Assembly (NCBI GenBank): GCA_963834795.1
Contig: CAWIDL010000032.1
Span: 238,278 to 302,277, forward strand
Source of the DNA: an uncultured delta proteobacterium
GTDB taxonomy: Bacteria; Desulfobacterota; Desulfobaccia; Desulfobaccales; 0-14-0-80-60-11
Reading direction: 5' to 3'
Length of the DNA: 64,000 nucleotides
Shown: positions 1,338 to 56,939 of the stretch, in pieces
Position numbering within the stretch: the first letter of the stretch is position 1
Layout of the letters: each line of letters begins with the position of its first letter
The notes under the pieces: generated by a model
What the model saw: only the letters and a program-made list of their open reading frames with translations
Databases searched by the model: none
What the model was told of the DNA's origin: nothing
Made by a program: the position numbers and the translations under genes

Positions 1338-1660
1338 CAGTATTGTCCGGCAATAAAATTGCACGAAGAAGCTTACACCATCTCGCAGTTAAACTCTAGG
1401 CCTTGGTAATTTTAACGATATCAACATATTATACCGATGCAAGCAAATCCCCTCTCCCCTGCGAGGGGAGAGAGGTGAGGGGTGGCTTCGTCGGCCGTCC
1501 AGATCCCCCCTCACCCTGCCATCTCCCCGGTCCCAACACCCCCAAGGGGGAGAGGAAAAAAGCTTGTAAATTCCATGAAATGATTAGCTAGTGGGCATGC
1601 CTGAATTCAAACAGATCTCTACTGCCTGCATCATAGCAAAAACCTTGCCGGACCCTACTG
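1338..1660. mobile_element. MITE copy 1 (non-autonomous derivative of the IS1380-family element at 56378)
   Basis: Terminal inverted repeats are cagtattgtccggcaa ... ttgccggaccctactg. The left ~100 nt match the left end of the IS at 56378 and copies 2 and 3. No credible ORF; 1403..1591 is a translation of low-complexity sequence. Confidence 0.75.
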
Positions 1661-1948
1661 AAGCAGGGAGATGAATGAAAGTTTTAATTATTTTTCATTC
1701 CGAGCCGCCGGCAGGCGGCGAAGAACCTCGTTTTGGAGACCCTTTGCCTGCGGCTCAGCTTAATAATATTGTATCATTTTCTCATAAGATGCTCAAGCTT
1801 TTCGCCTAAAGGCGAAGGTTTTAAACCAAGATCATGGAAAAATAAAATGTCCGGTCGGGTCATTATTATGGCAGTCTTGATTTTTCCAGGGTTATCGGCC
1901 TGATCGCCAGGGAACGGCAATTTCCTTATTAGGGATCGTTCTCTAACT

Positions 1949-3548
1949 CTTAATAACTCAAGTTTCGCACCCCTGAATTGGGGAAAAGTGGTTAAAAGAA
2001 TTGGAGATAGCGTTGAGATAAGCTCGAAACTGGGGTTCTGGATCACCAAATTGGGCCAGAGTGTTTAGCACGGTTTTCAGGAAAGTGACAAGGTATTGCC
2101 ACAGGCGCTCCAAGAAGGTGAGCTTACCGGTCTCTTCTTCCAGTTGGCGGAAGAGGTCGCCGATGGTCTGGGACCGCTCATCGTGCTCCAGGAGGTAGGC
2201 CAACAGGCTGTAACGGAAAAAGGCCTGGGTGACGGAGAAAACCTGGGCGGCAAAGGAACGGCCCTGCTCTTGACCCAGCTCCAGGCGCTGCTTGGCTTCT
2301 TTGAAAAACACCTCAATGGACCAGCGGCCTAGATATTTTTGCACTACCTGGACGGCGGTCAGGGTAAGGTCGGTGGTGAAAAAGGCGGCCCAAGGCGGCT
2401 CCGCCTTGATTTTGCCTCCGGGTCGGGCTTCCAGATCAGGCTCTTTATAGCCTTTGGTAAAGACGATGGCGCCCTGCAGGCCATTGCCGCACCGGACCGG
2501 TGCCAGGGTAAGGGAGAGCCCTAATTCCGCCGCCTTGACCAGCCGGTGTTTGTAGGCCTGATAGAGTTGGTCCAGGGTAGAGCCGACCCCGTCCCGATAG
2601 TAGAGGGTATGGTCCCGCTTCAAGCGGCCGATGACGTTAAGGCCCAGGTCCTTGACCCCTTGACAGAATTTGGGGGAAGTAAACCAGGCATCCACCAGGA
2701 GGTAAAGGGCCGGAATACCTTGTGTCAGGGCTTCCTTAAGCATCTTCAAGGCCAGGGCGGTTTGGTCAACTCCCTGGCATCGCGGAGACGCTGGGCCAAA
2801 TCTCCCCTGGTCTTGCGGGGCCGGGCCTCTCCGGCCTCCACGGGGGCGGTTTGGGAGAAATGGTGGCCGAAGTTCACGGGATAGAAGTTTCGGGACGTCA
2901 ACAATCCCAGGGTCAGGATCTCATAGCCTTTGACGGTTTTGCCTTGAGAGTGGTCGTAGACGAAACTCAGATTTTCCAGGCGTTTGCCCCGTTTGGGGAG
3001 GGCGGAGGTATCCAGGATGAAGCAGTTTTCCCGGGCCGTCTGGGACCACTGCAGCCGCCCGCCCAGGTAGGCGAGGAAGCGCCGGTAAAAAGGCCCCCAA
3101 CTCCATTCGGCTTTCTTGAAGCGGTAGAAGGCGTCTTTTTGGGCTTGAAACAGGGACTTGAGCGGTCGGTGGACCAGGTCATGGACGGTCTTGATATGCA
3201 GAAACACCAGATTGGTAAGGACAAACAAGAGATGCCGGGGGCTGAAGCCTTCGTGCTTGCGGATACCGGCTCCGGTCAGATGGCTTTGAATATGAAGCAC
3301 GGCAAACAATTCCTTGATCCTCAGGTCCAGTTCGGCGCGGAAATTTTTCAGGGCCGTTTCGATTTGTCCTTGAAAGAGAACGATTTTCCTGTTATGCAAG
3401 GGAAGGCTCCTTTTTTGTGGGTTTCGTTAACGATTTCGCAATCTTAACTTACCACAAATCTGGAGCCTTTTCCATTTTATTGATCTCTTTCTAAAACAAT
3501 AATAAGTAATTATCCGCAGTTACTTGGTGCGAAACTTGAGTTAATAAG
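1949..3548 (-). mobile_element. IS4-family insertion sequence (~1.6 kb)
   Basis: The ends are 22/23-matching inverted repeats: cttaataactcaagtttcgcacc (1949-1971) and ggtgcgaaacttgagttaataag (3526-3548). They enclose a DDE transposase. I could not identify a target-site duplication. Confidence 0.8.
1958..3399 (-). pseudogene. IS4-family DDE transposase split into two frames (ORFs 2746..3399 and 1958..2749)
   Basis: The N-terminal ORF carries ..FILDTSALPKRGK.. (first D region). The C-terminal ORF carries ..LYLLVDAWFTS.. and ..GRWSIEVFFKEAKQ.. (the DDE and YREK-type region). The ORFs are offset by one frame, and the C-terminal frame stays open upstream (..DQTALALKMLKEAL), so the shift lies at about 2750-2830. 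Confidence 0.8.
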
Positions 3549-3647
3549 CCGGGCAAATTAATGCAGCTTAAGGCTCATTATTCCCGGCGGCTTGGCCTGG
3601 CTTACAGGCGAGATACTGTGCTACCCTAATAAAAACGGCATAAGGGG

Positions 3648-5069
3648 ATGCGGACCATGGAAGTTCAGGAAAAAGACGAATTTAAGCAATTACGGGATCG
3701 CCTGGCGGTAACCGCCAGGCTGGTATGGGACCGGGTGGACCAGGGCGAACTGGCGGCCATCTTCGCATACGCTGACCATTACAAGACCTTTCTGGACCGG
3801 GCCAAGACCGAGCGGGAGGCGGTCCAGGAGATCGTGCGCCAGGCCCAGGCCCGGGGCTTTGTGGATCTCAGCTCCCGGACCCCGGGCCCCAGGGTTTTTT
3901 ATAATTATAAGGGCAAGAGCATCGCCCTGGTGGTCCAGGGCAAAAGGCCCCTGAGCTCCGGACTGCGATTGGTGGCCTCGCACATCGACTCCCCCCGCCT
4001 GGATCTGAAACCCTATCCCCTTTACGAGGACACGGACCTCACCTTTCTAAAGACCCACTATTACGGGGGCATCAAGAAATACCAGTGGCTGGCCCGGCCC
4101 CTGGCTATTCACGGGGTCATCCTCAAGGCCGACGGCGCCAGCGTGGACCTCCAGATAGGCGAAGACCCGGCGGACCCGGTGTTCACCGTGCTGGACCTGC
4201 TGCCCCATCTGGCCCGCAAGGCCCAGATGGAAAAGAAGGTGACCGAGGCCTTCGAGGGCGAAAAGCTCAATGTCCTGGTCGGCACTCTGCCCCTGGGGAA
4301 TACCGAGACCAAGGAGCGCTTCAAACTCCACTTTCTGAAACTCCTGGAAGAGCGCTATGGCATCAATGAAGAAGACTTCACCAGCGCCGAGGTGGAAGTA
4401 GTGCCCGCGGGCCCGGCCCGGGACCTGGGCTGGGACCGCAGCCTGGTGGGGGCCTACGGCCAGGATGACCGGGCCTGCGCCTATGCCGAACTGGCGGCCG
4501 CCCTGGACCTCCAGGAGCCGGAGCATACTTGCATGGCCCTGTTCTATGACAAGGAGGAAACCGGCTCCGACGGCAATACTTCCGCCAAGAGCTGCCTCCT
4601 GCAAGAGATAGTGGAACTCCTCCTGGAGCGCCAGGGGGAAAGCCCCCAGGGCCGGCGCCGGGTGCTGATGGCCTCCCGGGCCATTTCCGCCGACGTCACC
4701 GGGGCCCTGGACCCGGACTGGCTCGAAGTCTCTGAAAAGCGCAACGCCGCTCGTCTGGGCTACGGGGTGGGGCTCAGCAAGTACGGCGGCAGCGGCGGCA
4801 AGTATTCCACCAGCGACGCCAACGCCGAGTATGTGGCCTGGCTCCGCAGGGTCTTCCAGGAACACGGGGTCATCTGGCAGGCGGGTCAGTTGGGCAAGGT
4901 GGATGAAGGCGGCGGCGGCACCATCGCCAAGTTCCTGGCCATCCACGGCCTGGAGATCATCGACTGCGGCACCCCACTGCTTTCCATGCATTCCCCCTTC
5001 GAGGTGGCCTCCAAGGCCGACCTCTACATGACCTTCAAGGCCTACCGGGCCTTTTTCGGGGCGGGCTAG
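3648..5069 (+). CDS. M18-family (aspartyl/aminopeptidase 1-like) zinc aminopeptidase
   Basis: Full-length ORF with ..LVASHIDSPRLDLKPYPL..THYYGGIKKYQW.. and C-terminal ..SMHSPFEV.. motifs typical of peptidase M18. The ATG at 3657 has a better-spaced SD (aagggga) and may be the true start. Confidence 0.8.
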   Translation: MRTMEVQEKDEFKQLRDRLAVTARLVWDRVDQGELAAIFAYADHYKTFLDRAKTEREAVQEIVRQAQARGFVDLSSRTPGPRVFYNYKGKSIALVVQGKRPLSSGLRLVASHIDSPRLDLKPYPLYEDTDLTFLKTHYYGGIKKYQWLARPLAIHGVILKADGASVDLQIGEDPADPVFTVLDLLPHLARKAQMEKKVTEAFEGEKLNVLVGTLPLGNTETKERFKLHFLKLLEERYGINEEDFTSAEVEVVPAGPARDLGWDRSLVGAYGQDDRACAYAELAAALDLQEPEHTCMALFYDKEETGSDGNTSAKSCLLQEIVELLLERQGESPQGRRRVLMASRAISADVTGALDPDWLEVSEKRNAARLGYGVGLSKYGGSGGKYSTSDANAEYVAWLRRVFQEHGVIWQAGQLGKVDEGGGGTIAKFLAIHGLEIIDCGTPLLSMHSPFEVASKADLYMTFKAYRAFFGAG

Positions 5070-5595
5070 GGGAGGTTTAGCTTTTCTGTGAGGGGGTTTA
5101 AGACCAATACGGTTCATTTAAAGAGGTTCTAAGAAATCGGTGGGCTCGTGCCCACCCTACATTTTCAACTCGTTCCCAAGTTGTACTTGGGAACGAGAAT
5201 GATTACCGAATTTGACTTGGCGAAGCATGGGCGTCCCCAAGCTCAGCTTGGGGACGAGAAAAAAAATCGTAGGTCAGCGATGACGGCGTCATGAGGCAGC
5301 CAGACCAGCAAAGCCACCTGAGACCTCTGTGAAAGTCCCTTTACCTGTCATTCTGAGGGAGTGAAGCGACCGAAGAATCTCATAATTGACAAAATGACTT
5401 TTAGCAGAGGTCTCAACCTGCAAGAATTCGGCTGCCCGGGGACTGGCGAGGCGTTGGCGGGTGCTTCCCTTGCAAACCCGGAAAAAGTGATTAAATTTAA
5501 GGGATAAACCCGTTAAGCAAAAACCTTTCTCGATACTGGAAACTGGGCGACCCAGCGGGTCGCCCCTACTCGAAACTCAAAACCGGATATCTCAG

Positions 5596-6174
5596 ATGGC
5601 TAAATTCTTTGCGCGATTTAAGGCGGATGCCCCGGACGCCTCCATCTCCACCTGGGGGAATCTGGCCAACTTCTATAGCCTCCTGATCTTTCTCATTGCC
5701 ATTCCCTTTGTTCTCATTGTCCTCCTGGTGTGGCTCACCAGCTTGCTGGGTTTGAGCTCCTGGCTGTTCGCCGGCTTTGCCACCCTGTGCGCCTGGATCG
5801 GCTGGCGCCTCTACCGCTGGTGGCGGACAGTTAAGACCAGGATGACCGCTCAGGGGAGCGAATTTCACGACCTGATGCGGGAGGCGGCCAGGAACGGCAA
5901 GAACGTGGAGGTCTCCCTGCTCAGCGGCGCCTTGACCTTGCGGTATCCCGGCGCCGAGAATCTGGCCGCGGCCCTGCCGGGGCGGCCCCGAGCCCTGGCC
6001 CTGGCTGCCCCCCTGACCCTGGAGGCCGAGGCCGAAGAAATGCGCCCCTGGCTGCCGCCGGAACGCTTTCGGGAGGAACTGGAGGGATTTGTGCGTCTGC
6101 GGGACGAAGGGGTGATCAGCGCCGAGGAATTCGACCGCCTCAAGGCCAGCCTGCTGCAAAGGGTTTCTGCCTAG
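5596..6174 (+). CDS. Membrane protein with C-terminal SHOCT domain
   Basis: Two predicted TM helices (LLIFLIAIPFVLIVLLVWL; WLFAGFATLCAWIGW). The C-terminus LRDEGVISAEEFDRLKASLL fits the SHOCT short C-terminal domain pattern. Confidence 0.6.
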   Translation: MAKFFARFKADAPDASISTWGNLANFYSLLIFLIAIPFVLIVLLVWLTSLLGLSSWLFAGFATLCAWIGWRLYRWWRTVKTRMTAQGSEFHDLMREAARNGKNVEVSLLSGALTLRYPGAENLAAALPGRPRALALAAPLTLEAEAEEMRPWLPPERFREELEGFVRLRDEGVISAEEFDRLKASLLQRVSA

Positions 6175-6507
6175 GGGGCTGGATCAGCAGTCCAAAGGAC
6201 TATTAACCGAGTATCTCCCGAGGCTCCGCATAGAGGACAAGCAGGCCGCGTCCTACGCGCGTCTTTTGGTGCGTGAGACGCGCCCTACGCAAGCTGAGCC
6301 TGGAGGCCGATCTTTAAAATAGGGCGGGCTGTGCCCGCCTTCTTAGCTATCCGAAGGATAATGCACCCGGGGTTTGAGGCACAGCCGTCATAGCCCCAAA
6401 AATCGGCGGCCACAGGCCGCCCTATAAAATCTTTTGAGTTTCGAGTTTCGGGTGAACGCTAAGACAAAAAAGACATAAAAGGCAACAAGCCTGAAATTTC
6501 GCCCCGC

Positions 6508-7140
6508 TTAAACCTCCGGCACGGACTTCTCCGGCTGAATTTCTTCGGCGCCCATGGCGTACGCCGGCCCGGAGGTCAGCGCCCCCCCATCCCAGAAGTC
6601 TCGGCGCTGGCGGTAGTAGCCGTGGAGACGGACCAGTCTGCGGGCCAGTTGCCGGAGGGACTGGTCCCCCAGGTGGTCCAGGCAGGATTGCAGCAGGGCC
6701 AGAAAGCCGCCGGGCAAGTAATACCCCTCTTTCCCCAGGCTGCCCCGATATTCCACGCGGTAACCGTCCGCCGGAAGTTCATAGAACTCCAGCTCATAGG
6801 TGCGCAGGGCCGGCAGGGCCTGGTCGTTGACCAGGCGCAGTTGCCCCAAGGGCAGGCGGGGGCGTCGGGGAGGGCCTTCGTCGCTCAGCACCCGCTGGCA
6901 CACCCGGTCCAAAAAGACCATCAATTCCCGGGCCACCCGGACCTCGTTCATCTCTGATAATTCGAACAAAATGCGGGCGTAACCGAAAATCACCAGCGGG
7001 ATGGTGTCGGATTCCGGGTCCTGGCTGTGGTGCCAGAAGATGTGCGGAGTTACCTGGCCCTGGGGGTAAAAATCGATTCTGACCGTAGCCTTGTGCAGGC
7101 CCGGTTCCCGGCGAAACCGCCCCAGTATCCGTTTAATCAT
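6508..7140 (-). CDS. Hypothetical protein (210 aa)
   Basis: Long ORF with coding-like composition and no family I recognise. The antisense ORFs are shorter. Confidence 0.5.
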   Translation of the reverse strand: MIKRILGRFRREPGLHKATVRIDFYPQGQVTPHIFWHHSQDPESDTIPLVIFGYARILFELSEMNEVRVARELMVFLDRVCQRVLSDEGPPRRPRLPLGQLRLVNDQALPALRTYELEFYELPADGYRVEYRGSLGKEGYYLPGGFLALLQSCLDHLGDQSLRQLARRLVRLHGYYRQRRDFWDGGALTSGPAYAMGAEEIQPEKSVPEV

Positions 7141-7429
7141 GGTTCTAAGGGAGATGCAGGTCTTTCCTCAGATTCACCGTTGCTGGACCCCGCCTATCCT
7201 CTGGAACCCATTCCGGTTGGCTCTGCAGATAGGCGCCACCTCAGTGAAAGACCTGGACGGCGCGGAAAGCCGCCGGGTAGCGCCGAAAATGCAGATTTAC
7301 CTTACCCAATGCGCCGCCGAAAGTCAAACCATTTCCAGGGTTCGCGGGACCGGGGCATCACCCCCGGAAAATTGCGGTTTACAAGCCTGGGGAGATATTT
7401 TATAAACTAAGCATAAACGGAGAGAGCCG

Positions 7430-7852
7430 GTGTCCAAGTCGCCCCAGCTGGGCCGGGTACTGCCCCAGGGAGTGCCCGGCAGCATAAAGAAACGGCAGCT
7501 CCTCAATGACCAGGAGCTGAAAGCGGAACCTTGCCGGGAGTATGGCGAAAAGTTTCTGGCCCTGGGCTGGTGGGAGGACGCCCTGGAATTTTTCCAAAAG
7601 GGCCACGATTCCCAAGGACTGGAGAAGATTAAAAATCACTGCCTGGAGACGGGGGACGCCTACTTGCTGGCCAGGCTGGGGGTCCCCCAGGACCCGCACA
7701 CCTGGCAACAATTAGCAACGCGGGCCCTGGATCTGGGAAAATTTCGCTTTGCCCGGCGAGCCTATAAGCTGTCCGGTGATCCGGATAAAGCTGCCATGGT
7801 GGAAGCACTGATATCCGGCACAGAGACGGAAAAGACGCAAGATCAAGATTGA
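7430..7852 (+). CDS. Hypothetical protein (140 aa, GTG start)
   Basis: SD ggagagag lies just upstream of the GTG. The stop is 2 nt before the start of the next gene, suggesting an operon. No recognisable domain. Confidence 0.5.
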   Translation: MSKSPQLGRVLPQGVPGSIKKRQLLNDQELKAEPCREYGEKFLALGWWEDALEFFQKGHDSQGLEKIKNHCLETGDAYLLARLGVPQDPHTWQQLATRALDLGKFRFARRAYKLSGDPDKAAMVEALISGTETEKTQDQD

Positions 7853-7854
7853 CC

Positions 7855-9385: not shown

Positions 9386-9409
9386 TTGGATATGGCCGGA
9401 GTTTAACCG

Positions 9410-9772: not shown

Positions 9773-9889
9773 CCGCAATGGCCGCTGAGAGGCCAGATGT
9801 CAGTAACTTCTGTTAGCCAATTTGCACCTGGACTCCGCTGACCCTTTTTCCCTAAAACCGACCACTGACCACTGGCCCCTTTTCTTCAC

Positions 9890-10936: not shown

Positions 10937-10957
10937 GGTTAGGCGCTCCCTAAAAAG

Positions 10958-11026: not shown

Positions 11027-11120
11027 CTGTTTTCTGTTTACTGTTTTCTGTTTTCTGTGAAAGGCAAAATCAAAGTCAAAGGCCCTTTAGCAGAGGCAGA
11101 AAACAGAAAACTGAAAACAG
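11027..11120. repeat. Heptamer-word hairpin repeat, copy 1 (ctgtttt.. / ..aaaacag arms around a conserved core)
   Basis: Sequence is ctgttttctgtttactgttttctgttttctg-[tgaaaggcaaaatcaaagtcaaaggccctttagcagagg]-cagaaaacagaaaactgaaaacag. It is near-identical to 11625..11704. Confidence 0.85.
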
Positions 11121-11531: not shown

Positions 11532-11624
11532 GTTTTATCCTTGTACCATGGTTGAATTGCACCCACTAAGATAAACATCACGGCAGATTCCGTCAATCCA
11601 AAGGGCCGCCAGCAGTCTAGAATA

Positions 11625-11704
11625 CTGTTTTCTATTTTCTGTAAAAGGCAAAATCAAAGTCAAAGGCCCTTTAGCAGAGGCAGAAAACAGGAAACAGAAA
11701 ACTG
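11625..11704. repeat. Heptamer-word hairpin repeat, copy 2
   Basis: Same orientation and core (aaaggcaaaatcaaagtcaaaggccctttagcagagg) as 11027..11120. The two copies bracket the lipoprotein gene as direct repeats. Confidence 0.85.
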
Positions 11705-12433: not shown

Positions 12434-12544
12434 GCCTCTCGTCCTTGAATCTAAAGATTATCCCGGAGGCCCGGACCCAGGGGCGCAAGAGTCAAGAGAT
12501 TATAGCCTTTTACCCGCCGGCGGAGTAGATTTTAATTAAGCAAT

Positions 12545-12782
12545 CGGTAGTGTCCGGCAACAAGATTGCACGAAGAAACTTACCCTATCTCGCAGTTAAA
12601 CTCTATCCCATTGTAATTTCAACAATATCCATATATTATACCGATGCCACCCAATCTCTCTCCCCTGCGAGGGAAGAGGGAAAAAGCCTGTAAATTCCGG
12701 GAAATGATTAGTATGGGGCATGCCCAAGTTCAAACAGCTCTCTACTGCCTGCCTCATGGCAAAAACCTTGCCGGACACTACT
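12545..12782. mobile_element. MITE copy 2
   Basis: cggtagtgtccggcaa ... ttgccggacactact termini, collinear with copies 1 and 3. This is the shortest copy (~238 bp). Confidence 0.75.
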
Positions 12783-12816
12783 TTTAAGGAATGAAAGAAT
12801 TATCCTGACCTCGTCA

Positions 12817-15138: not shown

Positions 15139-15548
15139 CAGTAGTGTCCGGCAACAAAAATGCACGAAGAAACTTACACTATCCTGCAATTAAACTCTAT
15201 ACCATTGTAATTTCAACGATATCCACATATTATACTGAGCAACCAGATCCCCTCTCCTCTGCGAGGGGAGAGGGAAAAAAACTTGCAAATTTCAGGAAAT
15301 GATCAGCTAGTGTCATGTTTCAGAAATACCTTTAAAAATATCTGCATGTTCTTGTAGCCGCAGGCTTTAGCCTGCGCTCATTTTATTAAGGATTTTCGCA
15401 AGCTTAAGCTTGCGGCTACATTTAACGGCCTAAAGATGAAGGACATTTTTTATTAAAGGAAGATCTGAGACATGACACTAGTGGGCCTGCCTGATTCAAA
15501 CGGCTCCCTACTGCCTGCCTCAAGCAATAACCTTGCCGGACACTACTG
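15139..15548. mobile_element. MITE copy 3 (carries a nested insertion)
   Basis: Perfect termini cagtagtgtccggcaa ... ttgccggacactactg. Collinear with copies 1 and 2 except for the 165-bp insert at 15313..15477. Confidence 0.8.
15313..15477. mobile_element. Nested mini-element inside MITE copy 3
   Basis: Bounded by the 12-bp inverted repeat tcatgtttcaga / tctgagacatga and flanked by a direct duplication ctagtg (15307-15312 and 15478-15483). Copies 1 and 2 contain that motif only once (gattagCTAGTGggcatgcc). Confidence 0.6.
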
Positions 15549-15579: not shown

Positions 15580-16326
15580 ATGAAAAACTCACTCATCAGC
15601 TTGGTGGCCATGATGGTGCTGCTTCTGTCCGCTTCCGGCGGCCAGGCGGCGGAACCGGATAAAATGGCCCGGGCCGACGCCCTGATGGAGAGCCCTGCTT
15701 TGGATTCCCAGCAGGCGCAGCAGGCCCTGGCCCTCTATGAAGAGCTGCTGCCAGGATCCCCGCTGTTGTTGGTCCGGCTGGCGCGCACCTGCTTCGTTTT
15801 GGGGGATATGGCCCCCGACGCCTCCCGGGCCGGCTATTATGAGAAAGGTCTGACCTACGCCGAAAAACTCGTGGCCCAACAGCCTGACGGGGTCGCCGGC
15901 CATTACTGGAAGGCCTTGAATCTGAGCGGTCTGGCCGACGTCAACCGCCTCCGCGGCTTTAAACTGCTGCCGCAAATCATGGACGAACTCGAACGGTCCC
16001 TGGCCCTGGATGAAACCTTTGACCAGGCCGGGGCCCACCGGGTGTTGGGGCGCATCTATTTTGAGGCGCCCGGCTGGCCCGTGTCGGTGGGAGACCGGAA
16101 AAAATCCTTGGAGCAGCTAACAGCCGCGGTCCGCCTGGCGCCGGACAACAGCACGAACCACCTCTATCTGGCGGAAACCTTGCTGGCCATGGGGGGGAAG
16201 GCCCAGGCCCGAGAGGAGCTGGAGAAGGTTTTGCAGCCCCGGCGCCACGCCATCAGCCCGCAGGACCTGGAGGAAGATCACCGGGAAGCCCGGGGCCTGC
16301 TAAAAAAGCTGGAGGAGCAGGAATGA
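15580..16326 (+). CDS. Secreted TPR protein, TatT-like (TRAP-T-associated TPR component family)
   Basis: Signal peptide MKNSLISLVAMMVLLLSASGGQAA, then ..GHYWKALNLSG.. and ..GRIYFEAPGWPVSVGDRKKS..; the overall layout resembles TatT-family proteins. Confidence 0.55.
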   Translation: MKNSLISLVAMMVLLLSASGGQAAEPDKMARADALMESPALDSQQAQQALALYEELLPGSPLLLVRLARTCFVLGDMAPDASRAGYYEKGLTYAEKLVAQQPDGVAGHYWKALNLSGLADVNRLRGFKLLPQIMDELERSLALDETFDQAGAHRVLGRIYFEAPGWPVSVGDRKKSLEQLTAAVRLAPDNSTNHLYLAETLLAMGGKAQAREELEKVLQPRRHAISPQDLEEDHREARGLLKKLEEQE

Positions 16327-20595: not shown

Positions 20596-20640
20596 GAAAA
20601 TGCCCTATCGCAAGAGATGTTGGGAAAGGGTTTTTTATCT

Positions 20641-31523: not shown

Positions 31524-31789
31524 AGTTTCGAGTTTCGAGAAAAAACCACCTCGGGCCGGGAACAGAACTAATTTTCCTGGAGGCAGCTATTTTTTTTATT
31601 TTAACCTTTTTCCTGGAAAAGATGAACTCCTCCCCTTCATCTCACTTGCGAACTTAAAACTCGAAACCCAAAACTCAAAACTTATTAACGGGAGCATGAA
31701 AGGGGTTCCAGCTTTATCCCCTCTCCCCCGATGGGGGAGAGGGTTAGGGTGAGGGGGAATTTAATCTCTTTTCCGCTCCCATTAATAAC

Positions 31790-43086: not shown

Positions 43087-43231
43087 GTTACGGGGTGCGG
43101 GGTTAAGATTTTAATTTTTTAAGTGAACTTCTTCTGAAGGAATGGGAGGGGGCCAATTAAACCACTACCTGTTAAAGCAGGTAGATTTTCCAACGACTGA
43201 AAATCTTACTCGGGTAATTCTGGCTCAAAAC

Positions 43232-48833: not shown

Positions 48834-48949
48834 AGGGGAAGCAGGCTCACCGGCAAAACGTCTCGGTTCTCCGGTGAGTTAACCTGTTCCCATTTCCCGC
48901 CTGGTCGTTCCCCAATGTAAAAAATGGCCGGGTGGCAAGGAGAGATTAC

Positions 48950-49807: not shown

Positions 49808-49816
49808 CCTAACGCC

Positions 49817-50554: not shown

Positions 50555-51101
50555 CGTCCTCAACGAGACCAAACGCAAGATGGACAAGGTACTGGAGGCC
50601 ATGGCCCGGGACCTCTCCCGGGTGCGCACCGGCCGGGCCTCCGTGGTCCTGCTGGAAGGCATCAAGGTGGACTGCTACGGCGCCTCCATGCCCATCTCCC
50701 AGGTGGCCTCCCTGGCCGCCCCGGAACCCCGGCTGCTCACGGTGCAACCCTGGGACCCCTCTGTGCTCGGAGACCTGGAAAAGGCCATCCTTAAATCCGA
50801 CCTGGGTTTGACTCCCATGAACGACGGCAAGATCATCCGGCTGCCCATCCCCGCCCTCACCACCGAACGCCGCAAGGATCTGGTGAAGATGGTGAAGAAG
50901 ATGGAGGAGGAGGCCAAGGTGGCCTTGCGCAACCTCCGCCGGGAGGCCAACGAAGACCTGAAAGAAATGAAGAAGGATAAACTGCTGGCCGAAGATGAGG
51001 CCCACCGGGGCCAGGAAGAAGTCCAGAAGATCACCGATGACTGGATCAAGAAGCTGGAGGCCCAGGCGGCCGAAAAAGAAAAGGAGATCATGGCCTTCTG
51101 A
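50544..51101 (+). CDS. frr: Ribosome recycling factor
   Basis: ..[57 protein letters not shown]-like. Start at MKDDVLNE, overlapping the pyrH end. Confidence 0.95.
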
Positions 51102-51118
51102 ACGGCCGGAGGTAAGTC

Positions 51119-51895
51119 TTGCCCAATAATTCTTATCCTTCGGACTGCAATAAGCTTCCCCGCCATGTGGCCATCATCATGGACGGTAATGGCCGCTGGG
51201 CCCGGCGCCGGGGTCTGGTCCGCATCAAGGGCCACGTGGCCGGGGTAGAGTCGGTGCGCACCATAGTTCGCCTGGCCCGCAAGTTGGGCATCTCTTACCT
51301 CACCCTGTTCGCCTTCTCCGAAGAAAACTGGCAGCGCCCCGCCATGGAAATCCGGGCCCTGATGGCCCTGCTGCGCCGTTTCCTGCACCGGGAACTCCCC
51401 GAGATGCAGGAAAATCAGATTGCCCTAAGGGCCATCGGCAACTTGCCACAACTGCCCGCGGCGGTGCAGCGCGATCTGGCCCAAATCATCGCCGCCACCG
51501 CCCAGGGGACGGGGAACAAGATGGTCCTGACCCTGGCCCTGAGCTACGGCGGGCGCAGCGAGATCGTCCAGGCGGTACAGGCCCTGGCCCGGGACCTCCT
51601 GGCCGGCCGGCTGGCGCCCGCAGAGATCGACGCCGCCCTCCTGGCCCGCTACCTTTACACCGCCGACCTGCCCGACCCGGACCTGATGATCCGCACCAGC
51701 GGCGAGTACCGCTTGAGCAACTTTCTCCTCTGGCAGTCCGCCTATACCGAACTCTACGTCACCGACACCCTGTGGCCCGATTTCCGGGAAGAAGCCTTCC
51801 TGGCCGCCCTGGATGCCTACTGCCAGCGGGACCGCCGCTTCGGCCTCACCCAGGAACAGATCCAAGACCAGGACGCCTCCGACCCCGGGCATTGA
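51119..51895 (+). CDS. uppS: Undecaprenyl-diphosphate (isoprenyl) synthase
   Basis: ..PRHVAIIMDGNGRWA.., ..LTLFAFSEENWQRP.. and ..IRTSGEYRLSNFLLWQSAYTELY.. Confidence 0.95.
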   Translation: MPNNSYPSDCNKLPRHVAIIMDGNGRWARRRGLVRIKGHVAGVESVRTIVRLARKLGISYLTLFAFSEENWQRPAMEIRALMALLRRFLHRELPEMQENQIALRAIGNLPQLPAAVQRDLAQIIAATAQGTGNKMVLTLALSYGGRSEIVQAVQALARDLLAGRLAPAEIDAALLARYLYTADLPDPDLMIRTSGEYRLSNFLLWQSAYTELYVTDTLWPDFREEAFLAALDAYCQRDRRFGLTQEQIQDQDASDPGH

Positions 51896-51980
51896 GAAAT
51901 TGTTGGGGAGGGGGCTAAGGGCTTTTTTGTAAGTGGCCCTTCCCCCCTCCCCAAACCCCTCCCCCAATCCCATAAGAATT

Positions 51981-52026
51981 GTAGGGGCGACAGTGGCACA
52001 GGCTTCCAGCCTGTGATCGGGGCGGC
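51981..52026 (+). repeat. Two-tier hairpin repeat (family A), copy 5
   Basis: gtaggggcgacagtggcacaggcttccagcctgtgatcggggcggc; the distal outer arm is degenerate. Confidence 0.8.
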
Positions 52027-52048
52027 TCCTATAGCATAGTTAATAGTA

Positions 52049-52528
52049 TTAACCTTCGAACACTGGTCCCAGTCGTCCCTTAAGATAATCTTCAAGTAAG
52101 TCCTTGATATTATTTAAAGAGGGATTTAAAAAGAAATGGTCCCTATCAGCATTTTGCTGAATCCATAAACCATAATCATTTATAATCTGACCTATTCCAA
52201 GATAGTTCCATAGAATCCTACGATTCGAAATTGCTCCTGCCAAAGTGCTCATAGCAGAACCAGGTTTTTAATGCTGATATTTAAAACGTGCGCCGGAATT
52301 AGGACCAACCTTCCCCACTTTTAAAACTCGGTTAGGACCCGCCGGAGCATTAGTTCTTGGATTCATGGAAAATACATAAACAGCACAAGTACGACTTGGC
52401 AAACTTGGTGGCGTGTGGGGAGTTGTAATAAGATTGTGTGTTATTGCATTATTCGGTAAATTGATACCATAATGTTTAATTAAATCATTAACAAAATCTT
52501 GAATGAGGTTCCCGGGATTAATTAACAT
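52049..52528 (-). pseudogene. GIY-YIG-like small protein interrupted by one in-frame TAA
   Basis: ORFs 52268..52591 and 52049..52252 are in the SAME frame, separated only by the TAA at 52268-52270 (..ARFKYQH*KPGSAMSTLAGAI..). ..CAVYVFS..(N)..RVLKVGKVG.. resembles the GIY-YIG/T5orf172 core. Strong SD aggagg before the Met at 52528. AT-rich. Confidence 0.45.
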
Positions 52529-52562
52529 CTTTTTCCTCCTATCAGGGAATTCACCATTTCCT

Positions 52563-52716
52563 GGTTCCCAAGCTCCAGCTTGGGAACCCATTTTTTGGCC
52601 AGGCTCCGCCTGGCAGGGATTACGAGATAGGAAATTATCATCGTATTACAAGAGACGTTGCCCAAGCAGAGCTTGGGCCAAAATTTCCGTTCCCAAGCAG
52701 GAGCTTGGGAACGAGA
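52563..52716. repeat. Composite triple-hairpin repeat (gttcccaag..cttgggaac family), copy 2
   Basis: ggttcccaagctccagcttgggaacc ... ttgcccaagcagagcttgggcc ... cgttcccaagcaggagcttgggaacg, in the same order and spacing as 20641..20787. Confidence 0.85.
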
Positions 52717-52732
52717 AAAAGGAGCGAGAGTG

Positions 52733-52785
52733 GCACAGGCTTCCAGCCTGTGATCGGGTCGCCCCTTTTACATTTCTTCGCCGCA
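52733..52785 (+). repeat. Two-tier hairpin repeat (family A), copy 6
   Basis: gagcgagagtggcacaggcttccagcctgtgatcgggtcgcccc, directly following the triple-hairpin array. Confidence 0.8.
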
Positions 52786-52821
52786 CTTGCAGAGACTTGG
52801 TTCCCCCCGCCCCTACCCCGG

Positions 52822-54666
52822 TTAACCATGCTCCCGCAACCAATCCTGCACCTTTTCCGCCACCTGGCGATTTAACCCCGGAACCGCCGCCAGTTCCTCC
52901 ACCGCCGCCGCCTTTAACGCCTCCAGATGTGGAAAATGCTGCAACAACCGCCGGCGCCGCACCGGGCCGATGCCGGGGATCTGCTGCAAGACCGACTCCA
53001 CCATCTCCTGGCGGGCCCGCCGTCGGTGATAGGTGATGGCGAAGCGGTGGGCCTCGTCCCGCAGCCTGAGGAGCAGCAGCCAGCCCGGAGAGTTGGCCGG
53101 CGGAAACAGCGGGTTCTTCCTTCCTGCCAGAAAGAGGCGGTCCTTTACCTCCCCCCTCCCCCGCTTAAGCCCGGCCTTGGCCAGGCCCACCACCGCCAGA
53201 TTTCCCAGACCCAGCTCCTGCAGGGCCTTCAGGACCACGTTGAGCTGCCCCTGGCCGCCGTCCACCACCAGCAGGTCCGGCAGCACCTGTCCCTCCTTGC
53301 CGTAATGGCGCTGCACCACCTCCCGCAGCATGGCGTAATCGTCCTGGCCGGCCACCCCCCGGATGCGAAAGCGCCGATAACCGGACTTGTCCGGGAGGCC
53401 GTCGGCAAAGGCCACCAGGGCCCCCACCGCTTGCTCTCCCTGGAGGGTGGAGATGTCCAGGCATTCCAGGCGGCCAGGCCTCCGGGCCAGATGCAGCCGC
53501 GCCTCCAGGTCCGCCAGGGCCGCCTCGGGCGAGGGGGGGGTGCGGCGCCGTTTCAGGGCGGCCCGGGCATTTTCCGCCGCCAGGTTCAGGAGCCGGCTCC
53601 GCTCGCCAGCCCGGGGCGCCAGCAGGCGCATGGGCCCCCCCTTCTCTTCGCTGAGCAGCGCCTCCAGCAGCCGCCGGTCGTCAATCTCCCGGGGCAGCAG
53701 CATCTCATCCGGCAAGGGCCGACCCGCGGCATAATACTGCTTGACAAAGGCCCCCAGCAAATCACCGTCCGCGGGCAGTTCCGGGAAAAAGTACTCCCGG
53801 CTGCCGGTCACCAGCCCGGCCCGGATCACCAGCACCAGGACCAGGGCCTGGCCGTTCTCCCGGGCCAGCCCCAGGACATCCTGGTCCTTGAAGCTGGGCC
53901 GGGCCATGTCCTGGCGCTCCAGGGTCTGGGTGATGGCGCGCCTGCGGTCCCGCAGCACCGCGGCCCGCTCGAAATCCAGGAGGCCGGCGGCCTGGTCCAT
54001 TTCCTCCTTGAGCCTTTTCAAGAGACTGCGGCTCCGCCCCTTGAGGAGCAGGACCGCCTCCTGCACCGCCTTGCCGTATTCCGCGGAGCTCACCTGGCCG
54101 GCGCAAGGGCCCAGGCAATGCTCCAACTGAAACTCCAGGCATGGCCGGGAGCGCGGCGCCAGGCGGCGTTCCTTGCAGGTGCGCACCCCGAATGCCTGTT
54201 TCATCACCTTGAGGGTCTCCCGGGCCAGGCCGGCAGAGGCGAAGGGGCCGAAATAGAGGGCCCCGTCCGCCTGGAAGCGCCGCACGAATCTAAGGGCCGG
54301 AAACTCCTCCTTCAGATCAAGGCGCAGACAGAGATAGTTCTTGTCATCCCGCAGCATCACGTTGTAGCGGGGGCGGTGCTCCTTGATGAGGTTGCGCTCC
54401 AGGATCAGGGCCTCCCGGCCGGTGGCGGTGATAATGAAATCCACCCGGGCCATTTTTTTCAGCATCAGGGCGGTCTTGCCATCATGGCGCTCCGGGGCCT
54501 TGAGGTAAGATCCCAGGCGGTGCCTCAGGTTTACCGCCTTGCCCACGTAGAGCACCTTGCCGCCGCTGTCTTTGAAGAGGTAAACGCCGCTGGCCCCGGG
54601 TATTTTCCCCAGGGCCGCGGCCAGGGCCGGATAGGGAGCGTTGGACTTTACTTTGGAGGCGGGCAT
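52822..54666 (-). CDS. uvrC: Excinuclease ABC subunit C
   Basis: ..GVYLFKDSGGKVLYVGKAVNLRHRLGSY.. (GIY-YIG domain), a UVR motif ..FERAAVLRDR.., the RNase H-like endonuclease region and a C-terminal (HhH)2. Confidence 0.95.
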   Translation of the reverse strand: MPASKVKSNAPYPALAAALGKIPGASGVYLFKDSGGKVLYVGKAVNLRHRLGSYLKAPERHDGKTALMLKKMARVDFIITATGREALILERNLIKEHRPRYNVMLRDDKNYLCLRLDLKEEFPALRFVRRFQADGALYFGPFASAGLARETLKVMKQAFGVRTCKERRLAPRSRPCLEFQLEHCLGPCAGQVSSAEYGKAVQEAVLLLKGRSRSLLKRLKEEMDQAAGLLDFERAAVLRDRRRAITQTLERQDMARPSFKDQDVLGLARENGQALVLVLVIRAGLVTGSREYFFPELPADGDLLGAFVKQYYAAGRPLPDEMLLPREIDDRRLLEALLSEEKGGPMRLLAPRAGERSRLLNLAAENARAALKRRRTPPSPEAALADLEARLHLARRPGRLECLDISTLQGEQAVGALVAFADGLPDKSGYRRFRIRGVAGQDDYAMLREVVQRHYGKEGQVLPDLLVVDGGQGQLNVVLKALQELGLGNLAVVGLAKAGLKRGRGEVKDRLFLAGRKNPLFPPANSPGWLLLLRLRDEAHRFAITYHRRRARQEMVESVLQQIPGIGPVRRRRLLQHFPHLEALKAAAVEELAAVPGLNRQVAEKVQDWLREHG

Positions 54667-54747
54667 CTTATCTTTAGAATAACAGGCGGCTTCCGCCTGT
54701 CAAGCCACGGAAAACCCTGAACAATAAGGCGCCAAAGAGAGACCCTG

Positions 54748-55584
54748 ATGACCCTGCCATTGCGGCCCCTGGGCCACACCGGCCACCAGGCCACCATCCT
54801 CGGATTGGGCGGAGAAGGAGTGCTGCGCACCTACGACTTTGAGAAGGAGGCCCAGGCGGTCATCGCCGCGGCCCTGGAGACAGGGATCCGGTACTTCGAA
54901 TCCGCCCGGGCCTACTCGGGGAGCGAAGCCTATCTGGGCCGGGGCCTGAAGGGCCAGCGGCATCGAGTTTTCCTCACCAGCAAGTCCCACGGCCGCACCG
55001 CCAGGGAGGCCCTGGCCCAACTGTCCGTCACCCTGAAGAACCTGGACACCGATTATCTGGACCTGTGGCAGGTGCACGATGTGCGCACCCTGGACGAAGT
55101 GGAGGCCCTGGGAAGGCCCGGAGGGGCCCTCGAAGCCTTCCGCCAGGCCAAAGAGAGGGGTTGGGCCAGGTTCATCGGGGTTACCGGCCACCACGACCCG
55201 GAGGTGCTTAAGCGGGCCCTGGATCTTTACCAGTTTGACACGGTGCTGCTGCCGGTCAACCCGGCGGAGCCGCAGCACTTAAGCTTCCTGCCCCTGGCCG
55301 CCGCGGCCCAGACCCGTGGCCTCGGGGTCATCGGCATGAAGGTCCTGTGCCGGGGGCAACTGCCCCGGATGGCGGAGGACCCGGAGGCCCTGACCCGGGA
55401 ACTGCTGGCCTATGCCTTGAGCCAGTCCGTCAGCCTGGTGGTCATCGGCGCCGATTCCCCGGAGCAGGTGCGCGGGCTTGCCGCCGCGGCCCGGGACTTC
55501 GTCCCCATGACCCCGGAAGAGATGCGCCGCCTGGAGGAGGCAGTGGCCCCGTTTGCCAGGCAATTAATGTATTATAAGCCCTGA
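54748..55584 (+). CDS. Aldo/keto reductase
   Basis: ..LGLGGEGVLR.., ..GIRYFESARAYSGSE.., ..DLWQVHDV.. and ..IGVTGHH.. fit the AKR pattern. Confidence 0.8.
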   Translation: MTLPLRPLGHTGHQATILGLGGEGVLRTYDFEKEAQAVIAAALETGIRYFESARAYSGSEAYLGRGLKGQRHRVFLTSKSHGRTAREALAQLSVTLKNLDTDYLDLWQVHDVRTLDEVEALGRPGGALEAFRQAKERGWARFIGVTGHHDPEVLKRALDLYQFDTVLLPVNPAEPQHLSFLPLAAAAQTRGLGVIGMKVLCRGQLPRMAEDPEALTRELLAYALSQSVSLVVIGADSPEQVRGLAAAARDFVPMTPEEMRRLEEAVAPFARQLMYYKP

Positions 55585-56354
55585 CTATCCTTTTTTTCCG
55601 CCAGCCTGCTCCGCACATACCAGTCGATCTGGCGGCAAATGCCCTTGATCACCTGGGCCTCCCGGGCCCGCAGGCCGTGGCGCTGGAAGAGCTGGCGCAC
55701 GTTGAACATCCAGTGCTCCGGATTCTGTTGGGAAATGAAATTGATCTTCAGCAGGGTCTCCTGGAGCATGGCGTACATGGATTCCAGTTCCCGGGTGTTG
55801 GCCAGGCGAGGCGCGCCCCGGGGCCGCGGATCCCTCGCCGCGGTGAACAGTTCGTAGGCCAGGACCATCACCGCCTGGGCCAGGTTCAGTGAGGAGCAGT
55901 CCCCGGTGGGGATAGTCACCAGGGCGTGGCACAGGGGGAGTTCCTCATTGGTGAGCCCGAAATTCTCCGGCCCGAAGAGCAGGGCGATGTCGTTGTGGGC
56001 CGACAATGCTATGAGCTTGTCGGCCAGCTCCCGGGGGGTGAAAAAGGCGCGGCGCACCCCGCCCAGGCGGGCCGTGGCGCCCACCACATATTGAAAAGGC
56101 GCCAGGGCTCCGGCCAGGTCGTCGTAAACTTCCAGGCGGGTCAGCAGCTCCACCGCCGGGCCAGTGGCCATCATCGCCATGCGCTCGAAGTCCAGGTCCT
56201 GGGGCTGCACCGCGATGAGGCGCTTAAGACCCATGTTGCAGGCGGCCCGGGCCACGGCGCCAATGTTTTCCGGCAGCCGCGGCCGGAAGAGCACCACCGC
56301 CACCCCCGGGAGCCGCACCCGCGCTTCCGGGTCCGGTTGTTTCTGTCGCTTCAT
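55572..56354 (-). CDS. trmJ: SpoU/TrmH-class tRNA 2'-O-methyltransferase (TrmJ-like)
   Basis: ..VVLFRPRLPENIGAVARAACNMG.., ..LLFGPENFGLTNEEL.. and ..IPTGDCSSLNLAQAVMVLAYEL.. are SPOUT motifs 1-3. Confidence 0.8.
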   Translation of the reverse strand: MKRQKQPDPEARVRLPGVAVVLFRPRLPENIGAVARAACNMGLKRLIAVQPQDLDFERMAMMATGPAVELLTRLEVYDDLAGALAPFQYVVGATARLGGVRRAFFTPRELADKLIALSAHNDIALLFGPENFGLTNEELPLCHALVTIPTGDCSSLNLAQAVMVLAYELFTAARDPRPRGAPRLANTRELESMYAMLQETLLKINFISQQNPEHWMFNVRQLFQRHGLRAREAQVIKGICRQIDWYVRSRLAEKKDSQGL

Positions 56355-56377
56355 GGCCCTAATTTAACATATCCGCT

Positions 56378-56939
56378 CAGTAGTGTCGGGCAACAAAATT
56401 TACCTGAAGAACCTGACAATTTCGCCCAGTTAAAATCTAGACCATTGTAATTCCAACGATAGCAACATATTATCCTGGATTATGCCGCAAGAATTGCCTG
56501 AAATAAGCATAACTATATGATATAAGGAGAAATAACAGGCAATTTCGGGGGGTCCAAGATGCTCATCAATGGTGAAAGCCGGAAAGAGGTGGTTCGGCCG
56601 GATTTTAACCGGGCTATCAGGATAGATTTTCAGGGCGCTCAAATCACTTCAGATACCGGTTTTCTCCTGCTGCGAGAGATTGATGACCGCTTCAGAATCA
56701 TCGCCCCCATGGAGGAATGCCTGGAGGACCTGAGATCATCAACCCATACCAGGCATTCGCTAATCCAGATGGTGCAGCAAAGAGTTTACCAGATAGCTGC
56801 CGGTTATGAGGATTGTAACGACGCCGATTTTCTGCGTATTGATCCAGCCCTCAGGCTGGCCATCGGCAAAGACCATCGGGCCGGGGTCAGCCAGTCAATG
56901 CTCTCCCGTTTGGAGAACGAGGTTCTGAGTCAGGGCTAG
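56378..56939 (+). mobile_element. Truncated IS1380-family element: left terminal repeat plus the first ~126 codons of the transposase (CDS 56559..56939)
   Basis: The left end cagtagtgtcgggcaacaaaattt.. equals the MITE termini. The ORF ..FNRAIRIDFQGAQITSDTGFLLLREIDDRF..AAGYEDCNDADFLRIDPALRLA..SQSMLSRLEN.. matches the N-terminal region of IS1380-type DDE transposases, then stops abruptly. No DDE core or right end follows. Confidence 0.7.

Follow-up and report, generated by a model that had tools for sequence, protein, structure and literature searches.

The 64,000-nt stretch of delta proteobacterium DNA analysed here (the window) carries a set of short related repeats, one of which directly adjoins the start of an IS1380-family transposase gene, and the question raised by this arrangement is whether the gene is a remnant of the element from which the repeats are derived. 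Bacteria are well known to harbour MITEs, many accepted families of which are orphans. The first-pass annotation of this DNA had regarded the repeats as deletion derivatives of an IS1380-type element and the repeat at 56378 as its truncated parent. We conclude that a small, abundant transposon without coding capacity, flanked by 9-bp target-site duplications (TSDs), is represented in the window by three copies and a fragment. This transposon, here named MITE-A, is an ordinary, orphan and new MITE family of Desulfobaccales bacteria, and the IS1380-family gene adjoining its fragment belongs to a different element, an IS that landed in a MITE copy, and not to the family parent. Considered as a whole, the locus is very probably best explained by a MITE-A that is mobilised in trans and generates 9-bp TSDs, with an independent IS1380-family IS lying inside the copy at 56378. 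A plausible but wrong parent assignment is thereby corrected, as a transposase fragment adjoining a MITE end is not proof of parentage.

The MITE-A family in the window and in other genomes

MITE-A can be defined as a high-copy repeat by its terminal inverted repeats (TIRs), its TSD, two size classes and a target motif. The TIRs are 16 nt long (CAGTAGTGTCCGGCAA; terminal consensus 5'-CAGTAGTGTCCGG(C/T)A(A/G)) and are common to the three complete elements and the 96-nt left-end fragment. With up to three mismatches allowed, CAGTAGTGTCCGGCAA is matched eight times in the window against 0.32 matches expected, and seven of the eight are ends of the four elements, which confirms the shared TIRs of about 16 nt reported previously. 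The eighth match, at 15893 with three mismatches, is located within a gene and was rejected as an element end, being a chance match. Across the fetched loci at least 210 TIR termini were recognized. The consensus elements have stops in every frame and tblastn found no transposase gene inside the paired elements, at least 74 in all; with their TIRs and no transposase gene, the earlier description of the repeats as non-autonomous is borne out. Element lengths are mostly 214-454 bp with modes near 241 and 315 bp, and copies with nested inserts reach about 1 kb.

All elements in the window lie on the forward strand, and the three complete copies can be aligned over both arms. Copy 1 (1338..1660, 323 nt, with TIRs at 1338-1353 and 1645-1660) is of the ~315-nt form, which is set apart from the ~241-nt form by an extra GC-rich module of about 80 nt, found in this copy at about 1475..1555 (GGTGAGGGGTGG…CCCCTCACCC). 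Copy 2 (12545..12783, 239 nt) has the short form, and copy 3 (15139..15548, 410 nt), the TIRs of which are perfect, consists of the short form plus a nested second MITE of 169 nt. The sizes noted earlier are real and are accounted for by the module and the nested MITE, save that copy 2 had been ended at 12782 and not at 12783. The fragment (56378..56473, 96 nt, TIR CAGTAGTGTCGGGCAA) is 78-81% identical to the left end of the complete copies, in agreement with the roughly 100 nt of shared sequence first claimed, and it ends at the AT-rich spot of the MITE, CATATTAT, where the IS inserted. Among the neighbouring genes that had been named, tRNA-Leu, pgeF (PF02578) and ssb (PF00436) are present, but trigger factor (tig) is absent next to copy 1. 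This copy is neighboured by tRNA-Leu and by an IS4-family IS (1949-3548, TIRs CTTAATAACTCAAGTTTCGCACC), followed by an M18 aminopeptidase gene.

A scan of genome contigs for MITE-A gave at least 107 blocks, and nearly every block listed belongs to a MAG of Desulfobaccales or to one labelled 'delta proteobacterium'. The SPRUCE 187 MAG contributed at least 42 complete copies, MFD03323 at least 11 copies and the complete chromosome OY969108.1 at least six; the high genomic copy number that had been predicted from the window is therefore real. One full copy is located on an IMG/VR contig. Repeats of this family fragment the assemblies of peat and soil Desulfobaccales MAGs and will confuse gene calling there.

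Nine-base-pair target duplications and target preference

Insertion of MITE-A by a transposase acting in trans would proceed via cuts staggered by 9 bp, which would leave 9-bp direct duplications on either side of the element. Among the matches listed, a perfect 9-bp TSD flanks 32 of 73 copies against 0.63 in shuffled pairings, and with at most one mismatch the count rises to 50 of 73 against 1.15. No comparable excess was seen at other lengths from 2 to 12, where there is only a weak excess at 2-3 nt. Convincing TSDs had not been recognized by eye in the first reading, yet they are present at copy 1 (AAGCAGGTA at 1329-1337 and AAGCAGGGA at 1661-1669) and at copy 2 (TTAAGCAAT at 12536-12544 and TTAAGGAAT at 12784-12792); copy 3 has none, its flanks being TGAAGGTTT and ACCACGGCA. 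The boundaries and the duplication of copy 1 were validated by a comparison suggested earlier, in which a paralogous hairpin at 43160..43192 on the forward strand (AATTAAACCACTACCTGTTAAAGCAGGTAGAT) serves as a proxy for the empty site.

The target sites of MITE-A are often inside other small repeats. A logo of the targets has A at -5/-4, S at -2/-1 and T at +14/+15, a signal possibly inflated because many insertions fall in one other repeat family. The favoured target would be two-fold symmetric: the duplication would lie among G/C runs, and an A-tract and a T-tract would stand about 4-5 nt away on its upstream and downstream sides, respectively.

IS4-family elements are among the closest known parallels to MITE-A. 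Their TSDs range from 9 bp (IS10, IS50) to 10-12 bp (IS231), the ends of IS10/IS50 and IS231A start with C(A/T), their targets are two-fold symmetric, and those of IS231A have A/T tracts on either side of GC blocks. By description, these elements and their derivatives resemble MITE-A in TSD length, end type and symmetric target. The 9-bp TSD, CA-type ends and symmetric target of MITE-A may thus be compatible with an IS4-like (Tn5/Tn10/IS231-type) or an ISAs1-like enzyme, an assignment held with low confidence. No IS4-family transposase bounded by MITE-A TIRs was found in the fetched DNA, and the TIRs of the IS4-family IS in the window are unrelated to those of MITE-A.

A MITE with a 9-bp duplication has already been described in another former deltaproteobacterium, and the biology of MITE-A is ordinary beside it. 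Chunjie, found in Geobacter uraniireducens Rf4 and reported by Chen et al. (2008), is summarised in later papers as 178-235 bp long with TIRs of ~21 bp and 9-bp direct repeats, and as present in tens of complete and numerous incomplete copies, mostly intergenic and with a stable predicted fold (PMC3184786, PMC10969869); a reference sequence is given as NC_009483:2632106-2632324. Compared by description only, the two families agree in size and in the 9-bp direct repeat (PMC3184786), whereas Chunjie is described as A+T-rich and MITE-A has GC-rich hairpins. Geobacter is missing from the MITE-A matches listed in the genome scan.

Age of the copies and the source of the transposase

No autonomous element with MITE-A TIRs was detected in at least 107 genome blocks, 76 metagenome loci, two viral contigs and a plasmid collection. 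Since none was found, we infer, rather than observe, that MITE-A is mobilised in trans by a putative DDE transposase, and the same applies to the family of that enzyme. The genome loci were taken as fixed 8-kb blocks around the at least 107 matches listed, and a rare parent could therefore escape.

The copies of MITE-A are old, because they are ~93% identical to the consensus (about 7% diverged) and because SPRUCE 187, the MAG of a relative that is ~94% identical, has the copy 2 insertion at the orthologous position; the recent activity once proposed from the window finds no support on either count. The maximum pairwise identity between copies is 96.7%. With this divergence, the shared copy 2, the failure to find a parent in the genome blocks and the full copy on the IMG/VR contig, it is possible, if rather doubtful, that the parent is a larger or rarer element (a transposon of >3.5 kb or a plasmid or phage element) or is extinct, and that MITE-A is now an immobile fossil. 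However, perfect TSDs persist in 32 of the 73 copies among the matches listed, at least one site differs between relatives (a MITE occupies L071:3644-3958 in SPRUCE 187 and is missing from the window), and the genome search for the parent covered the at least 107 blocks listed. We consider it improbable that the mover belongs to an undescribed IS family or is a chromosomally fixed (domesticated) enzyme, in either case not recognisably related to any IS with these termini, and that MITE-A perhaps also acts as the vehicle of a small DUF559 nuclease cassette.

The IS1380-family element at 56474

According to ISfinder, members of the IS1380 family are about 1.6-2 kb long, with a single ORF, TIRs starting with CC and a TSD of 4-5 bp. 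The element at 56474 is a true member of this family. Its 5' fragment (56474..56935, forward strand) comprises its own left end CCTGGATTATGCCGC, a 5'UTR and the first 125 transposase codons; the ORF fragment occupies 56559-56939 and the IS is truncated at about 56930. The encoded fragment matches PF13701 and scores 76.9 bits against NF033539, at N-terminal positions 1-99 only, while an intact relative that is 83% identical over the window fragment scores 360.6 bits (cutoff 180). Intact relatives are 1604-1634 bp long (about 1610) with an ORF of 438-439 aa and CC…GG ends. A 5-bp TSD is present in three to four of 20 IS copies and perfect in three (L174, L176, L184) against 0.46 in the control, and the left flanks of the copies are 72% A+T. 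In its length of ~1.6 kb, CC ends and 5-bp TSD the element thus resembles IS1380, IS1247 and ISEcp1, whereas MITE-A, with CAG ends and a 9-bp TSD, shares no sequence similarity with the family.

That the MITEs are deletion derivatives of this IS, with the element at 56378 as a truncated master sharing their left end, is very unlikely. The idea stems from the 96 nt of MITE left end directly upstream of the transposase start, to which may be added a loose likeness seen by eye between inner segments of the IS left end and of the MITE TIR (GCAA…AATTGC), regarded here as chance. Against it, the ends of the IS (CCTGGATTATGCCGC / CCGAGATTATGCSGC) are not those of MITE-A (CAGTAGTGTCCGGCAA). Among 76 independent metagenome loci the IS starts with CCTGGATTAT and ends with ATAATCTCRG, both ends being seen in 27, and conservation between IS copies starts exactly at window position 56474, the point at which contig L004 also begins. 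MITE-A sequence was found upstream of none of 74 independent IS copies. The TSD is 5 bp for the IS (IS1247 likewise has a 5-bp direct repeat; PMC3281130, Table 2) and 9 bp for the MITE, and blastn-short of MITE-A against three IS copies returned only chance words of 8-14 nt (E of 0.2 or more). Deletion derivatives of the IS itself do exist, at 382-468 bp, and these bear IS ends and not MITE ends. A full-length IS1380-family master with MITE termini was likewise not found in the fetched DNA. The first-pass annotation had made parentage depend on termini shared with a transposase-bearing element; those of MITE-A match none in the fetched DNA, and the claim therefore fails on its own terms.

The junction between IS and MITE also varies. 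The IS lies inside MITE-A at three positions, ~56 (L059), 96 (the window) and 146, inverted (L030), and thus in both orientations, while the same AT-rich spot is occupied by other inserts in L023 and L053. Given the IS's own ends, the lack of MITE sequence upstream of all 74 copies and these varied junctions, the supposed fourth copy is an IS-interrupted MITE. Here, the only AT-rich stretch of a MITE-A copy was hit by an unrelated, conventional IS1380-family IS of ~1610 bp with AT-rich targets, and a later deletion removed the remainder of both the IS and the MITE.

Nested elements and internal features

Copy 3 is interrupted by a second element, MITE-B (15310..15478, forward strand, 169 nt), with TIRs GTGTCATGTTTCAGA / TCTGAGACATGACAC. 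Its insertion site is CTAG with the TA duplicated (15308-15309 and 15479-15480), which we take to be the target signature of IS630. The TA duplication of MITEs derived from IS630/Tc1-mariner elements (RUP, Correia-like) is shared by MITE-B only and not by MITE-A. Eight further MITE-B copies occur at about seven other loci (further MITE-B at L108, L067, L015, L076, L070, L021, L081 and L072, plus L102), four of them with the same flanks, CTA before and TAG after the element. Overall, at least three MITE families and the IS1380-family IS are densely nested in one another, and this nesting could serve to date their insertions relative to each other.

The internal palindrome reported for the MITEs is real and forms a GC hairpin at 12656..12679 (CTCTCTCCCCTGCGAGGGAAGAGG), ~1449-1474 and 15249-15274. 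This motif is generic and occurs beyond the MITE too, at 31708-31741 as well as in unrelated bacteria. It is scarcely credible that the repeats are REP/BIME-like palindromes or a structured ncRNA family spread by recombination or RAYT-type enzymes, as their stable predicted fold (z-scores of -3.7 and -3.3), conserved hairpin and intergenic location might suggest, since this is contradicted by precise 9-bp duplications at the exact TIR boundaries, by insertions whose targets were other repeats and an IS, and by the occurrence of the hairpin outside the element. No Rfam family matches MITE-A.

The left arm contains a promoter-like TTGTAA-17-TATTAT on the forward strand, at 12611..12639 in copy 2 and 15205-15233 in copy 3, which is probably a relic of the promoter of the parent's transposase. 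MITE orientation is not biased toward neighbouring genes (16 versus 12, p=0.57). A TIR-bounded variant of 696 bp has a perfect TSD and a DUF559 cassette with an intact ORF. The sequences that flank this cassette are similar to the GC-rich module of copy 1 and seem to have been kept in the common 315-nt form.

Copies and distribution of MITE-A

The repeat family termed MITE-A is delimited by 16-nt terminal inverted repeats (TIRs), and its terminus can also be written as CAGTAGTGTCCGG. Searching the window with the 16-mer CAGTAGTGTCCGGCAA at up to three mismatches yields eight matches, against 0.32 expected by chance, of which seven are the inverted ends of copies 1 (1338-1660), 2 (12545-12783) and 3 (15139-15548) and the left end at 56378; the eighth, at 15893, carries three mismatches, lies within a gene and is attributed to chance. 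TIR matches are thus present at all four positions at which the first-pass annotation had located elements. Copies 1 to 3 can be aligned over a left arm of about 105 nt and a right arm of about 100 nt, and the element at 56378 (copy 4) has only its first 96 nt in common with MITE-A, at 78-81% identity. Copy 1 is situated between tRNA-Leu and an IS4-family IS (1949-3548), beyond which lies an M18 aminopeptidase gene. As for the neighbouring genes named earlier, tRNA-Leu, pgeF (PF02578) and ssb (PF00436) are present and "tig" is absent.

A scan with a degenerate terminus pattern, using one genome per species, matched at least 107 blocks, almost all of them in MAGs assigned to Desulfobaccales or labelled "delta proteobacterium". 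The blocks listed, together with the window, contain at least 210 termini and at least 74 paired elements of 214-1002 bp, and among the matches listed the paired elements number at least 11 in MFD03323, at least six in the complete chromosome OY969108.1 and at least 42 in the Desulfobaccales MAG SPRUCE 187, which is about 94-95% identical to the window across the GATase-pgeF region. These counts indicate that MITE-A is high-copy and lineage-wide, and SPRUCE 187 alone bears out the high genomic copy number that had been proposed. Pattern matches outside the Desulfobaccales lie in coding DNA and are chance occurrences. A viral collection contained one MITE-A copy and one chance match, and a BLAST search of a plasmid collection recovered nothing of MITE-A except its generic GC hairpin. 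ENA metagenome contigs also carry a protein encoded in the window. In the more distant MFD01299 (L098:1551-2460, about 72% identical to the window) a MITE-A-type terminus occurs at 2233-2248 in the same GATase-pgeF intergenic region, which points either to an ancient insertion or to a site targeted repeatedly.

Median identity to the MITE-A consensus is about 93%. Pairwise identity among copies of about 315 nt has a median of 86.3% across genomes and 88.7% within SPRUCE 187, where the maximum is 96.7%. Copy 2 occupies an orthologous site in SPRUCE 187, with 92% identity over the element and its flanks, and the two genomes differ in at least one site (L071:3644-3958). The recent activity suggested at first reading is unsupported for the window copies, in view of their divergence from the consensus and the sharing of copy 2 with SPRUCE 187; low-level or past activity within the lineage is supported.

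The IS1380-family element beside copy 4

The left end at 56378 adjoins, as first described, the start of an IS1380-family transposase: the ORF at 56559-56939 encodes a 126-aa N-terminus (PF13701, E=8e-33; NF033539 positions 1-99). MITE-A had accordingly been regarded as derived from an IS1380-type element, with copy 4 as its truncated parent. Alignment of copy 4 (56378-56473) and its downstream sequence with L002, L003 and L004, three other loci with this IS, places the start of conservation exactly at 56474 (CCTGGATTATGCCGC); upstream of this boundary the contexts are unrelated, and the contig of L004 begins there. A metagenome scan for the IS left end recovered 76 loci, 27 of which contain the inverse right end …GCSGCATAATCTCRG. 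Complete copies of the IS measure 1604-1634 bp and possess intact ORFs of 438-439 aa, a full-length transposase reaches, after repair, 360.6 bits with NF033539 (cutoff 180), and deletion derivatives of 382-468 bp retain the IS ends. Duplications of 5 bp are perfect in three of 20 unique copies (ATACT, ATAAG, ATTAT; 0.46 expected), with a fourth matching at four of five positions, and the left flanks are 72% A+T. A 5-bp direct repeat (DR) is likewise listed for IS1247 of the same family (PMC3281130, Table 2).

MITE-A sequence is found upstream of the IS in none of 74 copies, a MITE TIR occurs anywhere in only one of the 76 IS loci, and the two elements have only chance words of 8-14 nt in common. 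An IS that has its own ends and its own duplications, and that is never preceded by MITE-A in these copies, is not the source of the MITEs; L002 and L003, considered as "master copies", are wholly without the MITE TIR. Copy 4 is instead a MITE-A copy into which an IS1380-family IS has inserted. Insertions of this IS type within MITE-A are also found at about nt 56 in L059, as a derivative of about 290 nt with both IS ends, and at about nt 146, inverted, in L030. The break point of copy 4 is the AT-rich stretch CATATTATA, regarded as an insertion hot-spot because L023 and L053 hold unrelated inserts there. Following insertion, the IS was truncated at about 56930 along with the remainder of MITE copy 4.

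In a protein search with the 126-aa fragment, none of the best 120 matches exceeds 220 aa. This had raised the possibility of a stand-alone N-terminal protein or of a programmed frameshift, rejected in view of the intact 438-439-aa ORFs; the short matches are fragments or deletion derivatives. Internally deleted IS1380-type derivatives are numerous (L003:3905-4999, L004, L059:~195-490 on the minus strand, L123/L128/L158); mini-elements of 290-468 bp keep both IS ends, and a derivative in Nitrospinota MAGs joins aa 1-185 in frame to aa 362-438.

Target sites and internal anatomy

Target-site duplications (TSDs) of 2-12 bp were assessed in 73 elements with both flanks, with shuffled left/right pairings as the control. 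Directly flanking the TIRs, 32 of the 73 have a 9-bp direct repeat without mismatches, and 50 have one with no more than a single mismatch (controls 0.63 and 1.15); among the other lengths in that range, 2-3 bp are weakly enriched and none is enriched to a similar degree in these elements. The duplication, which had escaped detection by eye, is present at copy 1 (AAGCAGGTA / AAGCAGGGA) and copy 2 (TTAAGCAAT / TTAAGGAAT), and none was found in the flanks of copy 3, which lies in the ssb-TPR intergenic region and may have lost it through an adjacent deletion or through recombination between copies. Removal of the element and one TSD from the copy 1 flanks leaves AATTAAACCACTAtCTGTTA-AGCAGGTAGAT, and comparison with 43160-43192 (AATTAAACCACTAcCTGTTAaAGCAGGTAGAT) supports the earlier proposal that the paralogue at about 43165 can serve well as an empty-site proxy. 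Reconstructed targets are two-fold symmetric, with A at -5/-4, G/C at -2/-1, G/C at TSD positions 2 and 8 and T at +14/+15, a logo that may be partly inflated because many targets fall within another repeat (for example …AAATCCCC|CCTAAATCC|CCCTTT…). The commonest host of MITE-A insertions is a third repeat family, MITE-C, with the TSD CCTAAATCC, a pattern suggestive of strong target specificity or, alternatively, of composites having been amplified. MITE-C (AGTGTTTCAYAAYTAKCTGGACATAATATC…GGGGGATTTAGGGGG) is seen at L045:461-651, L054:~670-820, L074, L068 and others.

Two size classes of MITE-A are distinguished, whose consensus sequences are 241 and 315 nt long; the latter contains an extra GC-rich module, located at about 1475-1555 in copy 1. 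A 696-bp variant that has TIRs of the MITE-A type and is flanked by a perfect 9-bp TSD (L021:419-1114; L042:~2617-3283) has an intact DUF559 ORF (PF04480, E=9e-37) between GGTGAGGGGTGG / CCCCTCACCC. Judged by sequence, loss of the ORF from this cassette would leave something resembling the extra module of the 315-nt form. Copy 3 is a short form with a nested 169-nt element at 15310-15478 belonging to a second family, MITE-B (about 170 nt), which has its own TIRs (GTGTCATGTTTCAGA) and is inserted in CTAG with TA duplicated on both sides, a target that we take to be an IS630/mariner-like signature. Eight further MITE-B copies occur at seven other loci, four of these copies having the same CTA|…|TAG flanks; MITE-B is seen at L108, L067, L015, L076, L070, L021, L081, L072 and L102. 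The extra length of longer MITE-A copies likewise comes from further nested repeats.

The predicted MITE-A fold is stable (z-scores of -3.7 and -3.3), and an Rfam search matched tRNA alone and no MITE-A family. The central GC hairpin, also encountered outside MITE-A at 31708-31741 and in unrelated plasmids, is a generic motif. Promoter donation, prompted by copies 2 and 3 ending 31-33 nt ahead of a start codon, was rejected because MITE-A copies are not preferentially oriented toward the starts of adjacent genes (16 vs 12, p=0.57), and for this reason the promoter-like TTGTAA-17-TATTAT of the left arm is read as a relic and not as a host-exploited promoter.

Candidate parents and other repeats

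By tblastn, no transposase-coding DNA adjoins any MITE-A terminus among the matches listed, unpaired termini being truncated copies, variant ends entering housekeeping genes or block-edge artefacts. Clustering of multi-copy ORFs over about 700 kb of loci recovered nothing recurrent but the IS1380-type transposase, and relaxed 11-mer terminus pairing at 900-3500 nt found neighbouring MITEs only. Several candidates were discarded: a recurrent variant end (…GGCAAGGTTTTTGCTAATCTGCCG…) leads into housekeeping genes; the long paired copies (508-1002 bp), viewed as decayed parents, owe their extra DNA to nested repeats and in one case the DUF559 ORF; the MITE arms, viewed as N- and C-termini of a parent transposase, have a consensus frame that stops after 16 codons; and the TIRs of the IS4-family IS next to copy 1 are unrelated to those of MITE-A. 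MITE-A is therefore for now an orphan family among the loci examined. An IS4-like (Tn5/Tn10/IS231-type) or ISAs1-like transposase would presumably go with a 9-bp TSD, CA-type ends and a symmetric target with a GC core and AT flanks, and by this analogy such an enzyme is a lead for MITE-A.

MITE-A has all the structural features of a bacterial MITE bar a known cognate IS. By description, in size and 9-bp DRs, its closest analogue is Chunjie of Geobacter uraniireducens, an element of 178-235 bp reported to have 21-bp TIRs and 9-bp DRs and to be present in tens of complete copies, with partial ones in addition (PMC3184786, PMC10969869). The main value of the analysis lies in the corrected parentage and in a defined repeat family for annotating Desulfobaccales genomes.

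The IS4-family IS (NF049925; 1949-3548, minus strand) has a transposase split into ORFs 2746-3399 and 1958-2749, 23-nt TIRs (CTTAATAACTCAAGTTTCGCACC) and no obvious TSD; in L048 the same TIR directly borders a degenerate MITE terminus. Six copies of a REP-like 45-nt palindromic family (AGGGGCGACAGTGGCACAGGCTTCCAGCCTGTGATCNGGTCGCCC) lie in the window (16346, 31479, 35750, 45247 (inverted), 51983 and 52720), and this family is found in other Desulfobaccales loci too, such as L054. An 80-nt repeat pair (11039-11118 and 11623-11702) has the ends GTTTTCTGTTTTCTG…CAGAAAACAGAAAAC; a MITE-A copy lies within this repeat in SPRUCE 187, and none does in the window. Hairpins of the form GTTCCCAAGC…GCTTGGGAAC are located at 20639/52561 and 20754/52681. 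Directly after the MITE and IS debris, GC content drops from about 65% to 42-52% over about 56400-62000, a segment that may be a horizontally acquired block between IS remnants. An IS1595-type transposase fragment (zinc-ribbon domain PF12760; 57813-58253, minus strand) adjoins a GntR/FCD regulator (57055-57816), and the low-GC genes at 58389-60324 encode a DUF485 protein and a sodium:solute symporter.
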